From a virus (lineage: Duplodnaviria > Heunggongvirae > Uroviricota > Caudoviricetes): a stretch of 46,821 nucleotides of DNA. A program made the position numbers. Location: IMG/VR virus record IMGVR_UViG_2718217787_000008. One strand, 5' to 3'. This document shows, piece after piece, positions 12,001 through 18,000 of this stretch; position 1 is the first letter of the stretch; the number at the start of each line of letters is the position of its first letter.

Positions 12001-15000
12001 TGTTTCCTGTCGCCAGCACTCTGGGTATCGCCGAAGGCATCGAAACAGCGCTGTCAGCGCACCAGATTTATAACGTGAACACCTGGGCAACCATTAACAG
12101 CGGCTTTATGAAAAAGTTCCGCGTACCAACTGGTGTTTTGCACCTGATTATTTTTGCCGACCGTGACGAGAACAGCGCCACCGGGCTGGCTGCGGCTTGC
12201 GAATGTGCTCATGCCAATCTGATGGCAAAGAATGACCTGCAGCGCGTGAGCGTGTACTGGCCGGATCACGATGATTTCAACAATATGCTCATGAACGGTG
12301 ATCAGGTTCGAGAGCTGGTTTTCCATAAGAAAAAGGCGGTTGCGTAATGCGTACTGATAACAACGAACATAAAGCACTATTCACCATCCCGACGGCAGCG
12401 TACAGCTCCGCCCTCGCAAACATCAAGCCCCTGCCAGAGCAACGGAGAATCACCGGGCATAAGCAGACTGATGCTTATCTTTGGGTGCTGGAGGTTATCC
12501 GTCTGAACGAACCCGCACATCTGGATGCTGCTGAGGCTGCGCTGGTGAAAATTAAAATTTCCCCAAAAGAGGCTCAGGAACGCTATTCGCGTTATCTGCT
12601 GGCGAATGGTTACGAACCTTTCCAGGTTGCGTTCGGCATCATCGGCATGGATAACCCTGCGCAGGTTATCAGGAACGCCCGGGAGAACATCAAAAAAGCG
12701 GCATCAGTCAGGGCTACGTTTGGTAGCTATGAAGCAGCGCTCGAAGATGTGGAAGCAGAGCGGGTCATCAGGTCTTCCCAGAAATTTATCAACGATCATC
12801 TCTGGGGCTGGACTGCGGCAGAGAAAAAAGCCGGAAGCATTGGCGGCAGCCGCATGAACGAAATTGATGAACAGCGTCGGGCATTTGTTGATGGATATCG
12901 CGATGTGCTGCCTGAGCCTTATACGCTGTCTGATGTTGTTCGCGAGTTCGTTTACTGGGACTGGCTCTACAGTGTTCGCCACACTGCAACTAAAGAACAG
13001 GGCGATGAGTTTGGTTACTCTGAGCATCACGAATCAGTATATGACCGGGAGCGCTACCTTGAAAAATTGCTGGCAACTATCAAACCGGTGACACGCGCTG
13101 AAGCCGTGGAGGTGTGCCGCTGGTTTCTGGCAAGTGGTAAGGGTGAATGCATGGAAGACGACGGTGCAGCGGTCATTCTCAATCTGGTTGGGGAGTGTGA
13201 ATAATGAAGCTTGAGGCATCGCTAAAATACTTCAGTCCTCAGGGAATGTATATCGGCGACGATGTGAAAGGAACCTCTCCGGAACGTCTTACAGGCACCG
13301 ATGTTATGGCGGCTATTGGTACCACCAGCAATCGTGAGCGGTTTGGCCTGGCGGCCTTCTTCGGGAAGGCCGGTATCAGCAAGACTGATGAGCAGATGGC
13401 AGTCCAGGCGCTGGCGCGTCACGCGATGGAAATTGCACCGAAGAATGTGCGTAAAGCAGCTGGTGGTGAATTTGGCTGGTGTATGCTGGTACTGGCTCAG
13501 TTTGCTTTTGCTGAGTATTCCCGATCGGCGGCCACCAGCGTAACATGCCATAGTTGCAGTGGTACCGGACTAACACCCCGTAAGCAGGTCATTCGTAAGG
13601 TTTCATACCCATGGGGTAAAGCACCATATTGGGCCAGTCGCTCCCGTGCTGTTCGACCGTCAGACTGGGAAAAATGGACAGAGGTAACGGAAGTTGTACC
13701 AGTCGTTTGCGATGTATGTAAAGGGAAGGGAGTGATAAGTGCCAGGTGTCGTTGTGGTGGAAAGGGAGAGGTACTGGACCGCAAAGCCACAAGCGAGCGT
13801 GGTGTGCCAGTGTTTAAAATCTGCGAGCGTTGTAGTGGAAAGGGATTCGTATCTATCAAATCAGCTAATGTTCATCGAGCTATTCAAATATACATTCCCG
13901 ATCTGCACCAGTCTTCATGGTCGCGCAATTGGAAACCATTCTATGAAAAATTGGTTGATATCCTGCATCAAGGTGAGCGGCATGCGGCTAGAGAATTTGA
14001 GAAGGCAACGAGTTACTGATCTGAACAGCTTTGGCGGAGAGATTTTTGAGCAACTGACTTGACTTTGCATAAAATTGTCTTGTATCATTTTAATTATGGG
14101 GTTTAGCGCCAATATAAAAATTAACACGGAACCCGCTTTATAGCGGGTTTTTTAATTATGGTAAATTTTCCATAAATTTCTTAAATAGTAATTTGTCTTT
14201 ATTGCTTACAGATTTCTGAATGTTAAGTAATGCACGTAAAGGTTTAAGGTTTTCTCTTGTTGCAAAAACCCTGGATTTTTCTAAGCGTTCCTGAACAAAG
14301 TTAAAGCGTTCTCTTAATCTTGAAACCTTTATTCCAAAAGACAACACCTCTCTTTCAGTCAATTCATCTGGGGTACATTTGTTTAATTTTTCCAGAACCA
14401 TTTTTATATCTCTTTCATAAAGAAGAGCAATGTCATAATCATTCAGCAAGCATTCAGGGTATTGTATTACCCCAATAAGTTCATTTACGGTTTTGTTTTT
14501 GTTGTTAACTTTTGGAGCTGAGTCGCTTGTTTGCTTCTGGGACATAATTTCGTCCAGTTCTAGCTCTTCTGTATTTTTTAATCTTGAGCGGAAAACACGC
14601 CCATCACCAGAAGCAGCCATCTTTTTCAATGTTTGATAAGCTGCACGCCCGATGATTTTAGGGTCTTTCATGTCAAGTATTCTATGAGCAACCTCAGTTA
14701 GTGATGGACGCCCAGATTCGATTTTGGCTTTGAGTTTGTAATAGCTAAAAATATCATCTTTTGCCTCTTTAAGTGCGGTAAGTAAGCGATGGAAATCTGC
14801 TTTTCGGCAAAGTTCTATTGCTAAATTATCAAAGGCTATACCAAAAACATTAGTTCCACATACATGGCCGATATTCGTTTCAAATCCTTCTTTCGTAACT
14901 ACCAGAAATCCCTTTTTATGCCCTTTGCGGCAATTTGATTTTCCACATGGAATTTCCTCTGGTAGGTCATCGTAGTAACCAAAAACGTCAGAGAGTTGCT

Positions 15001-18000
15001 GATCATTTAACTCTAATTTGGGATAGTAAGACTCTCTCGCCTGAATTTCTGCCCAGTCATTCACGCGAATAAAACTTTCGCCATTCTTGAGAAAAATCAT
15101 ACTCGTCCTTACTGTGGTTAGATTTAAAGCATATCCATTTGATATTTAATCACTATTCTTTTTGTATTTCACCTAAAACCATTTTGTTTTCATGTTTAAT
15201 GTGACTGATGTATCATCACTCCCCCAGCCATTTTAGCTAAATGATGAGAGCGACTCATAATCGCCAGGTCGCTGGTTCAAATCCAGCAAGGGCCACCATC
15301 ACATACCGCCATTAGCTCATCGTGACAGAGCGCCAGCCTTCGAAGCTGGCTGCGCGGGGCTCGGGTCCCCGATGGCGGTCCATTATCGGTATTCTGCGTT
15401 TTTAGCTCAGCCGGACAGAGCAATTGCCTTCTAAGCAATCGGTCACTGGTTCGAATCCAGTACAACGCGCCACACCACACTTATCTGCCCTGACTCTCTT
15501 TTGCGGGCTTTTTATTACAGGAAAGACACCGGACAGTGAAATGTTAAATGCCTCACAATTCAGGTAGTTGACTGTTGCCTGACATGCTGAGCGTTTGTTA
15601 AAAAAATCCTGCATGGTGAATCCCCCTGGGCGGCGGGGCATAATGACAGATGTTTGGTTGCGTATTGTATAGGCAAGTTGCGGATTCTGTCTGGTCATTG
15701 CAGAATTCACCGGGAGGCACCCGGCATCATGCTGTATACAGAGATTAGGCATATATCTAGGCTCCTCATCGCAGGAGCCTTTTTACATGCAAAAAAAGCC
15801 CGAGTAGGTTCGGGCAACAGCATGAGATACTTGCATTGTCATTTTTATCGTGTGGATTTTAACCAGGGTTTATAAGGCTGCGCAACTGCGCGGCCTTTTT
15901 CGTATTGCGGGCTGTAGTCTTCCTTCTGTCATTGTCCTGTAACTTCCGGACTTCAGCCCGCCCCTTATCTGACTCACAACATCATCCCGGCCGGGAGGAT
16001 TCATGGCATTTAAACACTATGACGTGGTCAGGGCGGCGTCGCCGTCAGACCTTGCGGATGCGCTTGCTCAAAAAATTCGTGAAGGATGGCAGCCATACGG
16101 CGGGCCGTTTTCTTCGTATACGGATGATGGCGCAGCACTTATTCAGGCGATTGTCGCAGAAGGTGATGTGAGCACACCTGTTGTGGTGAAGCCGTCGGAT
16201 GGAGAAGGCACAGTAATCAGCGCCACCAGAGACCCGGAGTATTACTTTGTTGTGGTTCTGGCGGGGCAGTCAAACAGCATGGCATATGGTGAAGGCCTTC
16301 CGCTGCCGGAGACATATGACCGTCCGGACCCGCGCATTAAGCAGCTGGCGCGTCGCAGTACGGTGACACCGGGCGGTGTCGCCTGTAAATATAACGACAT
16401 CATTCCGGCGGACCATTGTCTGCATGATGTGCAGGACATGAGCCGCCTTAACCATCCGAAAGCGGACCTGTCAAAGGGGCAGTACGGAACCGTGGGGCAA
16501 GGGCTGCATATCGCCAAAAAATTGCTGCCGTTTATACCGGCGAATGCGGGCATTCTGCTGGTTCCGTGCTGTCGTGGTGGTTCAGCGTTCACCACCGGAG
16601 CCGATGGCACATACAGTGACGCGAGTGGTGCCTCGGAGAATTCAACCCGCTGGGGTGTGGACAAGCCGCTGTATAAGGACCTTATCGGTCGAACAAAAGC
16701 AGCACTGAAGAAGAATCCGAAAAATGTGCTGTTTGCCGTGGTGTGGATGCAGGGGGAATTTGATTTTGGCGGTACGCCGGTAAATCACGCAGCACAGTTT
16801 GGTGCGCTGGTTGATAAATTCCGTGCAGACCTGGCGGATATGGCAGGTCAGTGCGTCGGTGGCTCTGCTGGCGGTGTTCCCTGGATATGTGGAGATACGA
16901 CGTATTTCTGGAAGCAGAAGAACGAATCCACGTACCAGACGGTGTACGGCAGCTACAAAAACAAAACGGAAAAGAATATCCATTTCGTACCGTTCATGAC
17001 GGATGAGAACGGGGTGAATGTGCCGACGAACAAACCGGAAGAAGACCCGGACATTCCGGGTATCGGATATTACGGTTCGAAATGGCGTGACAGCTCAGCC
17101 ACCTGGACGTCACAGGACAGGGCGAGCCATTTCAGTTCATGGGCTCGCCGCGGGATTATTTCCGACCGTCTGGCAACGGCGATTTTGCGCCATGCGGGAA
17201 GAGTGGCGCTAAACGCGGGGGCATCATCGACAGTATCAGAGGTGCGCCCGTCATCGCCTTCCGGTGCAGAAGCCACAGGCGTCACAACACTGCTCTCTTA
17301 CCTTGCCAGCGAGTCAGAGGGAAGCCTGAAAGTACAGGGATGGTCAGCCAGTGGCGGCAGGGCAGAAGTGGTCAGCGATGCGGAGGGAACCGGAGGTAAG
17401 GCAGTGAAGCTGACCAAGGAAGCCGGTAAAAGCAGCTGGGTGCTGGAGTACGCCGCGGGCAACGGTGCGGCTCTGTTACAGAAAGGGGGGCAGATTCGCT
17501 GCCGCTTTAAGGTTTCGGGAGCGCTGGCTGCGAACCAGTATGTTATGGCGTTTTACTGGCCGGTATCTTCACTGCCACAGGGCGTTGCCCTGACCGGAGA
17601 CGGGGGGAATAACCTGCTGGCAGCGTTCTACATCCAGACAGATGCAAAAGACCTGAATGTGATGTACCACAATGCGAAAGTGGCGACAAACAACCTGAAA
17701 CTGGGAACCTTTGGCGCATTTGATAACGAATGGCATACGCTGGCTTTCCGCTTTGCCGGGAATAACAGCCTTCAGGTGACGCCGGTTATTGATGGTCAGG
17801 ATGGCACACCGTTCACGCTGACGCAGTCACCGGTCAGTGCATTTGCGGCGGATAAACTGCATGTGACAGACATTACCAGGAATGCGACTTACCCGGTGCT
17901 GATTGACAGCATTGTGGTGGAAGTGAACAACGCGGATGCCGCGGCATGATAAAAAAAGCCGCCAGTTGCCTGAGACCTCTGGCGGTGTGAGATTCATGGA

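Follow-up and report, generated by a model that had tools for sequence, protein, structure and literature searches.

Accessory genes of temperate phages, or morons, are classically found between the antiterminator gene Q and the lysis genes. The Shiga toxin genes (stx), phage tRNAs and the nmpC/lc porins all occupy one hotspot, past Q, the late promoter pR' and the terminator tR', and all have a foreign base composition. Other phage genes, expressed in the lysogen and acting by abortive infection, are tied to the repressor: in lambda, rexAB lies on the same strand just downstream of cI, and BstA of Salmonella phage BTP1 is, as we take it, the product of a single gene of ~300 amino acids (aa), resembling in this a member of the family described here. 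A further system is HepS, the constitutively expressed HEPN anticodon nuclease of prophage Gifsy-1; its catalytic residues are R100/H105, and crystal structures of it have been reported (Nature 2026, PMC13043305). Here, we analyzed a stretch of 46,821 nucleotides (nt) from IMG/VR virus record IMGVR_UViG_2718217787_000008 (Caudoviricetes), called the window below, and in particular a minus-strand open reading frame (ORF) at positions 14156..15100, the cargo ORF, whose product we consider a candidate phage-exclusion factor.

The cargo ORF sits in the same hotspot as the classical morons and shares their foreign base composition. In contrast to morons of the stx type, it is transcribed against the late operon and is therefore independent of Q read-through; moreover, its family is also present in cI-side and non-phage loci. 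Members from Pseudomonas-type prophages, a Klebsiella phage and Pseudomonas aeruginosa phages share the repressor-adjacent logic of RexAB and BstA, whereas the window copy is placed in the Q slot, antisense behind Q/tR' and not beside a repressor. No Pfam or PADLOC match to RexA, RexB or KilA-N (for BstA) was obtained with the cargo protein or 70 of its relatives. As for HepS, the cargo protein is likewise a single-protein prophage candidate, with constitutive expression predicted, and the numbering of its R99/H104 is near that of HepS R100/H105. Nevertheless, no likeness to HepS was detected by phmmer, PDB profile or fold searches (the HepS entries possibly lie outside the PDB copy used), and the cargo protein has a CCHC beta domain, a feature that the HepS paper (PMC13043305) does not describe. 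Since the motif is not conserved and there is no sequence or fold match, the agreement in numbering is a coincidence.

That prophage morons are candidate defense genes was already known, and the protein cluster of the cargo ORF had been flagged computationally. The present analysis adds the definition of the family and its CCHC core, a confident structural model without a match, two conserved placements that would couple the gene to lysogeny, the exchange of alleles between Q and stx, and the refutation of a HEPN function.

The cargo ORF is an acquired gene under purifying selection

The cargo ORF begins with ATG and encodes a protein of 314 aa (36 kDa); the only other ORFs listed across the region are short ones of 45-52 aa on the plus strand. 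Its GC content is 0.364, against 0.512 in the remaining window, confirming the AT-rich 314-aa minus-strand ORF proposed in a first-pass annotation of this DNA. Comparison with the 96.7%-identical allele of another prophage (locus L002) gave a ratio of nonsynonymous to synonymous substitution (dN/dS) of 0.046. Because of this ratio, the 550 clusters of the family, mostly of ~300 aa, and an AlphaFold2 model of high confidence, the cargo ORF is a real, functional gene on which purifying selection acts. The exact protein was found on at least 1000 contigs, and 22 of 5426 complete E. coli genomes carry the ORF. At the NZ_CP018250.1 locus, where the DNA is 100% identical to that of the window, the product bears the RefSeq label WP_000576620.1. 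The highest 19-residue Kyte-Doolittle mean, 1.25, is below transmembrane strength, and the protein is predicted to be soluble. With its low GC content and the mobile context of its family, the cargo ORF is a horizontally moved, independently acquired cargo gene (moron) of the Q-to-lysis hotspot, in agreement with what had been proposed.

In the 5' region of the ORF (15101..15226, minus strand), a Shine-Dalgarno sequence, AAGGA, is found at 15106-15110, and alignment of the upstream regions revealed a 37-nt block (15117-15153) shared with the 63%-identical allele of locus L013. The block holds a possible extended -10 element (TGCTTTAAA) and a weak -35 element (GTGATT); a consensus promoter scan found no strong minus-strand site in 15101..15226. 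These upstream features suggest that a minus-strand promoter of the cargo ORF might be harbored by this region.

The cargo protein belongs to a large family with a conserved CCHC core

The cargo protein matched no Pfam, NCBIfam or PADLOC family in library scans, and PADLOC-DB 2.0 contains no model for its family. In agreement with the first-pass annotation, which could not place the protein, it belongs to no curated family; it falls into PHROG 7003, which is annotated as of 'unknown function'. The match to this profile (E = 2.4e-118) covers residues 1-313 of the protein (314) and positions 1-308 of the profile (309), and 70/70 diverse relatives match it as well. In the library scans of the cargo protein and of the same 70 relatives (Pfam and PADLOC), all matches were at chance level: DUF6852 (E = 0.054) and, for one relative, CARF_HEPN (E = 0.0015). 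Thirteen clusters with at least 59% identity, exclusively from Enterobacterales, were recovered by a word-indexed protein search. An exhaustive profile search against 1.84 billion representatives, with clusters at 50% identity, raised this number to 550 at E <= 1e-3 and 293 at E <= 1e-10, mostly proteins of 280-330 aa that match over their full length. Every named member is labeled 'hypothetical protein', and neither PHROG 7003 nor the accession is mentioned in the full-text literature searched (the study of E. coli prophage defense by Brenes & Laub lies outside the scope of that search).

To describe conservation, we used the 70 diverse members, which are 19-64% identical to the window protein. 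Residues Y43, C52, C57, G64, G78, C81 and G82 are invariant in this set; H61 (99%; 69/70), N76 (96%), T75, F86, F90 and N284 are kept in at least 90% of the members, and R173 and E179 in 77-86%. The core of the family, and its most conserved feature, is C-x4-C-x3-H-x19-C (C52, C57, H61 and C81), a ligand pattern for which, to our knowledge, no catalogued signature exists. The Cys/His cluster pointed out in the first-pass annotation is therefore confirmed, with three invariant cysteines and H61; the histidine of its GHVCG stretch, H79, varies among members (H, N or K).

A second motif of that annotation, the Rx4H (R99-H104) taken as a weak sign of a HEPN RNase, did not hold up. A single Rx4H is present in 23% of shuffles of the protein, and Rx4-6H in 54%. 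Moreover, R99 is kept in 44% of the 70 members, being K in most close homologues, and H104 in 10%.

Predicted structure and putative zinc site

With the 70-sequence alignment, AlphaFold2 yielded a model with a predicted local distance difference test score (pLDDT) of 95.8 and a predicted template modeling score (pTM) of 0.85. The model consists of an acidic N-terminal beta domain (approximately residues 1-86; isoelectric point [pI], 5.0) and a basic C-terminal part (pI 9.4) made of long helices and one small beta-hairpin (168-174, 204-211). In the N-terminal domain, a Cys knuckle with H61 (52-61) is followed by a hairpin (64-69, 74-78) and a helix (79-86), which carries C81 in its first turn. 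Given their conservation, C52, C57, H61 and C81 are most likely the ligands of a structural CCHC zinc site, treble-clef-like in type (knuckle, beta-hairpin, helix). Treble-clef fingers and zinc-stabilized HNH (His-Me finger) modules share this order of a Cys knuckle, a beta-hairpin and a helix with a first-turn Cys; the likeness lies in the order of secondary structure alone, as the cargo protein gave no profile or fold match to these modules.

Searches with the model by Foldseek returned no useful match, either against PDB (best E = 0.88) or against BFVD (best E = 0.014; template modeling [TM] score, 0.18). Similarly, nothing was found among the PDB sequences by single-sequence (phmmer), full-length profile or N-domain profile searches. 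As modeled, the fold of the cargo protein is unlike anything in the solved-structure or viral libraries searched; no HEPN or nuclease fold, as the hypothesis of the first-pass annotation would call for, was recognized among the matches listed. Two other candidates were set aside: a first AlphaFold2 model based on 14 close sequences was discarded as poor (pLDDT 59.8), and the best PDB match of the N-domain, residues 255-282 of rotavirus C NSP2 (E = 0.21), was rejected as chance.

The Q slot and exchange of alleles upstream of stx

In the window, the cargo ORF is preceded by a Q-type antitermination protein of 271 aa (13204..14019, plus strand), assigned from the RefSeq annotation of 100%-identical loci; the corresponding 271-aa protein of loci L013 and L014 matches Pfam Antiterm (PF03589). 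A promoter scan revealed a late promoter-like site (pR'; TTGACT-18-TATCAT) at 14059..14088 on the plus strand, which points at the 3' end of the cargo ORF. Between the two lies a hairpin terminator (tR'; 14128..14151), with a G+C-rich stem and a T-run, 4 nt from the stop codon of the cargo ORF; the position after a terminator following Q had thus been read correctly. This hairpin is strong on the plus strand and weaker on the minus strand, where the U-rich tract is displaced.

The antiterminator accompanies the cargo ORF in E. coli prophages: the same Q module is always upstream of the E. coli copies, including that in a prophage with Stx2 of the e/i/l/k subtype group. We aligned the window with L002, with L013 and with a Stx2f backbone (L134). 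The order Q stop, pR', tR' hairpin and ORF stop is kept in 4/4 of these backbones, and the hairpin itself is kept in all of them although its stem sequence differs. Promoter-like hexamers are aligned at the pR' position in L002 and in L013, which has 10/12 consensus matches; in L134, the hexamers aligned there are degenerate, and no promoter was found by the scan. Relatives in the Q slot with 56-63% identity were found in a metagenomic enterobacterial prophage, Yersinia and Ewingella, again on the opposite strand and between Q and holin/lysozyme. The Ewingella locus has a different Q family (PF06323).

Alleles of the gene are exchanged within this slot. In Stx2f phage phi467 and in Stx2f prophages, the primase is 99% and the Q 87% identical to the window counterpart, yet the slot between Q and stxA2f is occupied by a family member that is only 31% identical to the window's. 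In Stx2f phages as well as in phages of the Stx2 e/i/l/k subtypes, a family gene lies directly between pR' and stx, in a convergent orientation.

Regarding the individual stx loci, the prophages with the same Q module have, directly after the family gene, either stx2 of the e/i/l/k group (interrupted by IS2; L002 9410-11986) or stx2f (L134 1829-3064). In the phi467 record (L133 4501-5375), the family gene is frameshifted into two overlapping ORFs of 133 and 174 aa. The copy of E. coli 2015C-4136CT1, 99.8% identical to that of phi467, is an intact gene of 306 aa, and the split in phi467 is possibly a sequencing error or a recent pseudogene.

Adjacency to tRNA genes is a property of the slot

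Upstream of the cargo ORF, on the plus strand, lies a tRNA block (15227..15472) composed of a degenerate ileZ-like element, tRNA-Arg(tcg) and tRNA-Arg(tct). As the first-pass annotation had stated, tRNA genes are adjacent: the two tRNA-Arg genes are at 15306-15382 and 15396-15472, and the degenerate third element, at 15227-15295, reaches 36 bits in the Rfam tRNA model, whose gathering score is 29, but is not called by ARAGORN. The further suggestion that this adjacency hints at RNA targeting found no support. Among 289 Stx-type phage records with the ileZ-argN-argO block, the cargo ORF is present in one alone (vB_EcoS-611R1). Of nine related Q-slot loci, four lack adjacent tRNAs, and in the other five the neighboring tRNAs differ in identity (Gly/Thr/Met, Met, Arg/Asn and Gly/Met/Gln among them); in the cI-side loci scanned, tRNAs were found in 0/4. 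Because a single block record carries the ORF and the tRNAs of related loci vary or are absent, the adjacency belongs to the slot: it reflects a shared hotspot and not a functional pair with the cargo ORF.

The degenerate element marks the junction of the AT-rich cargo and the tRNA block, and it may have been damaged when the cargo was inserted. In phage 611R1, the equivalent element is labeled 'tRNA-Pseudo-TAT'.

The cI slot, loci outside prophages and mobility

A second placement was observed beside the repressor. In eight Pseudomonas-type prophage loci, a repressor with helix-turn-helix (HTH) and Peptidase_S24 domains lies immediately, or nearly so, upstream of the family gene and on the same strand. 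Against the family hidden Markov model (HMM), the members from these loci reach 1e-35 to 1e-46, and they keep the motif. Likewise, in Klebsiella phage ST13-OXA48phi12.2 and in Hollowayvirus phages of P. aeruginosa, the family gene has the early-left operon on one side and cI on the other. Small opposite-strand genes, an unannotated ~96-aa ORF and then DUF1654, follow ~50-700 nt downstream of the family gene in L121-L129 and are confined to the Pseudomonas lineage; the two apparently belong to the backbone of a single group of related prophages.

With the subfamily alignment, we also retrieved 68 loci outside prophages, mostly from Burkholderiales, Pseudomonas and Xanthomonadales. Clustering of the neighbors over 66 loci revealed no conserved neighbor gene. 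Among 140 neighbors from ~45 loci, the raw counts are five integrases and five transposases, with Gabija (GajA/GajB) in two loci, and one lineage of the family is repeatedly flanked by transposases. The GC content of the family gene is below that of its flanks in 59/65 genome loci (median, 8 points) and in 45/45 viral loci (median, 12 points). Overall, the family is mobile and of low GC content.

One gene pair was seen separately from these loci. On the metagenome contigs L005-L008, a 25%-identical family member (P0164) and a 196-aa gene (DUF4236 + PG_binding_1) are convergent in every case, and the pair is flanked by differing transposases (Transposase_mut, IS66 and IS21), as if the two were mobile together.

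Possible functions of the cargo protein

Taken together, we give about an even chance to the cargo protein being a lysogeny-coupled, single-protein phage-exclusion factor, acting by superinfection exclusion or abortive infection. Among the explanations considered, it is the most likely because of the two placements, the swapping of alleles in near-identical backbones and a published machine-learning prediction. Both slots are classic sites of lysogen-expressed genes and run counter to the lytic operons or lie apart from them. Expression in the lysogen is expected: the cargo ORF would be made from its own promoter, and its expression would be tied to the dormant state. At induction, read-through of tR' by Q would produce antisense transcription over the cargo ORF and should shut it off. 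In the Pseudomonas prophages, where the family gene is downstream of a cI-type repressor, expression would fall once the repressor is lost. Both placements would thus silence the gene when the carrier phage turns lytic. In the protein, the zinc module may recognize either a phage protein or nucleic acid, and the basic helices might serve as a partner, effector or oligomerization region.

The prediction comes from DefensePredictor (DeWeirdt, Mahoney & Laub, Science 2026, PMC13092281), which reports 1,041 uncharacterized predicted defense clusters in the E. coli pangenome. Going by the RefSeq identifier of the DNA-identical locus, the window protein is cluster WP_000576620.1. In Table S10 of that study, WP_000576620.1 (314 aa) has a log-odds of 4.67 at a strict cutoff of 4, and a second allele, WP_032207072.1 (306 aa), has 7.87; both are described as 'Predicted novel defense gene', without a given HHblits or Foldseek match (PMC13092281). 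The clusters WP_000576620.1 and WP_001549653.1 are classed there as 'uncharacterized predicted defense' (PMC13092281). The end-to-end match to PHROG 7003 and the shared RefSeq identifier of the DefensePredictor cluster connect the protein to known groupings, but neither of them gives a function. The first-pass annotation had put forward defense as a hypothesis, and the context in more than 100 related loci, along with the DefensePredictor entry for the protein's cluster, makes this a reasonable one. As possible relatives of similar size, we considered the validated DefensePredictor systems DS-40 and DS-19, whose sequences are unrelated. The family signature (ETNIG and variants) is missing from the validated-system sequences of Table S8 (PMC13092281).

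Several points weigh against phage exclusion. Neither E. coli allele is among the 94 cloned and tested units or the 42 validated ones of that study, in which 45% of the tested units were validated (PMC13092281). The log-odds of 4.67 is barely over the strict cutoff, and the prediction is not fully independent of our argument from context because the model uses GC content and neighboring genes. Adjacency to known defense genes is weak, with Gabija in just two of ~45 loci by raw count. No effector domain (nuclease, NTPase, membrane segment or toxin) was detected in Pfam, NCBIfam, PADLOC and PHROG scans or by the hydrophobicity check. Finally, the lysogen promoter, the antisense shut-off and the binding of zinc are all steps that we infer.

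If the protein is indeed defensive, it would be an immune protein distributed across Gamma- and Betaproteobacteria, in the 550 clusters at 50% identity described above. Its mechanism would then be new, as the confident fold is unmatched and no effector domain is recognizable. The placements at the Q terminator and at cI suggest a simple self-shut-off of prophage defense during induction, and therefore bear on the question of how prophage-borne defenses spare their carrier. Furthermore, convergent transcription between the late promoter and stx could affect toxin output, which would be medically relevant. If the protein is not defensive, a large family of unknown function would still deserve a Pfam entry.

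A more specific proposal, which we regard as speculative and unlikely, is a new type of single-protein immunity. In it, the protein would have a fold not seen among solved structures, with the CCHC module as a zinc sensor and the basic helical part as an effector; self-immunity would follow from the placement in the genome instead of a partner protein, and damping of read-through into the toxin genes would be possible in Stx2f phages and those of the Stx2 e/i/l/k subtypes.

We attach a similarly low probability to the protein being a zinc-finger regulator that binds DNA or RNA and tunes late-operon/Stx read-through, lysogeny or host virulence genes. The CCHC module with the basic C-terminal part would suit this role, and the family adjoins cI and Q/pR'/tR', the two hubs of regulation in temperate phages, besides standing directly between pR' and stx in phages with Stx2f or the Stx2 e/i/l/k subtypes. 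On the other hand, Pfam scans detected neither an HTH nor a known DNA-binding family, and many members lie outside prophages, by transposases, integrases and ordinary genes, where neither a partner nor a target is conserved. In addition, 31%-identical alleles are swapped in near-identical backbones, which is odd for a regulator because a regulator must match fixed operator sites.

Fast-evolving, low-GC, swappable hotspot genes encode anti-defense as well as defense functions. A counter-defense or phage-competition factor that blocks host immunity or a rival prophage could therefore look like the cargo ORF, and the presence of the family in PHROGs and in 45 viral contigs would be compatible with it. 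We nonetheless find this role improbable: the orientation opposes both the early and the late lytic operons, the association with cI points to expression in the lysogen and not in lytic growth, and the family occurs widely in chromosomal non-prophage loci.

Equally doubtful is a defense variant in which invading DNA would be cut by the N-terminal module, a degenerate HNH/His-Me-finger (beta-beta-alpha-metal) nuclease whose catalytic residues would be H61 and N76. The model has a knuckle, a His, a hairpin with the near-invariant N76 and a Cys at the start of the helix, a module order that recalls, as a lead only, zinc-stabilized HNH nucleases such as T4 endonuclease VII. Nevertheless, H61 precedes strand 1 in the model, whereas the catalytic His of HNH/His-Me fingers is at the end of strand 1, and Pfam HNH families were matched by 0/70 members.

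A role as virulence or host-interaction cargo (a secreted effector or toxin), like the AT-rich morons of the enterohemorrhagic E. coli (EHEC) type, is very unlikely. The gene is AT-rich and found in Stx-phage-like prophages, and a putative effector-type locus is present at the other end of the window's prophage. However, its relatives, which show no link to secretion systems, come from Burkholderiales of soil and water, Pseudomonas syringae, Xanthomonadales and metagenomes, and the protein has no stretch of transmembrane strength.

Lastly, there is hardly any chance that the protein is a HEPN RNase or anticodon nuclease with catalytic R99-H104, paired with phage tRNAs as HepS in Gifsy-1: the motif is there, near the HepS numbering (PMC13043305), tRNAs adjoin it here and in 5/9 related Q-slot loci, and 1/70 members has the weak PADLOC CARF_HEPN match, but the motif is unconserved and at chance level, the protein itself matches no HEPN family in Pfam or PADLOC, and the confident model resembles no HEPN or nuclease fold.

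Other features of the window

Upstream of the cargo ORF's slot, the plus strand encodes, in this order, a helicase, a primase, a 285-aa gene and then the Q-type antiterminator. On the other side, past the tRNA genes, two small RNAs (sRNAs) were detected with Rfam. STnc100 (15582-15790, plus strand; 173 bits, E = 1e-40) lies between the tRNAs and a DUF6645-annotated gene, and an AgvB (anti-GcvB)/AsxR-like sRNA (15791-15850, minus strand) scored 56.2 bits, just over the gathering score (56). Past the sRNAs come a 648-aa protein annotated as DUF6645 domain-containing and then the lysis cassette. The prophage of the window has the layout of a Stx phage (Q, tRNAs, DUF6645-domain protein and lysis genes) without the stx genes (compare 15473-16002).

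A second AT-rich cargo gene, encoding 1128 aa on the minus strand (42568..45954; GC, 0.30-0.37), is located just past the tail-fiber genes. The cargo ORF had been described as the only minus-strand gene of the late region; this is true between Q and the tail fibers, but not beyond them, where this second one stands. The annotation of the identical E. coli 10671 locus names its product a DUF4765 family protein. A frameshifted DUF1076 gene separates it from the tail fibers, and a transposase remnant is found on its opposite flank. A second low-GC stretch of the window (0.40-0.43), at 6000-8000, corresponds to the immunity region, where RefSeq annotates two minus-strand helix-turn-helix proteins.

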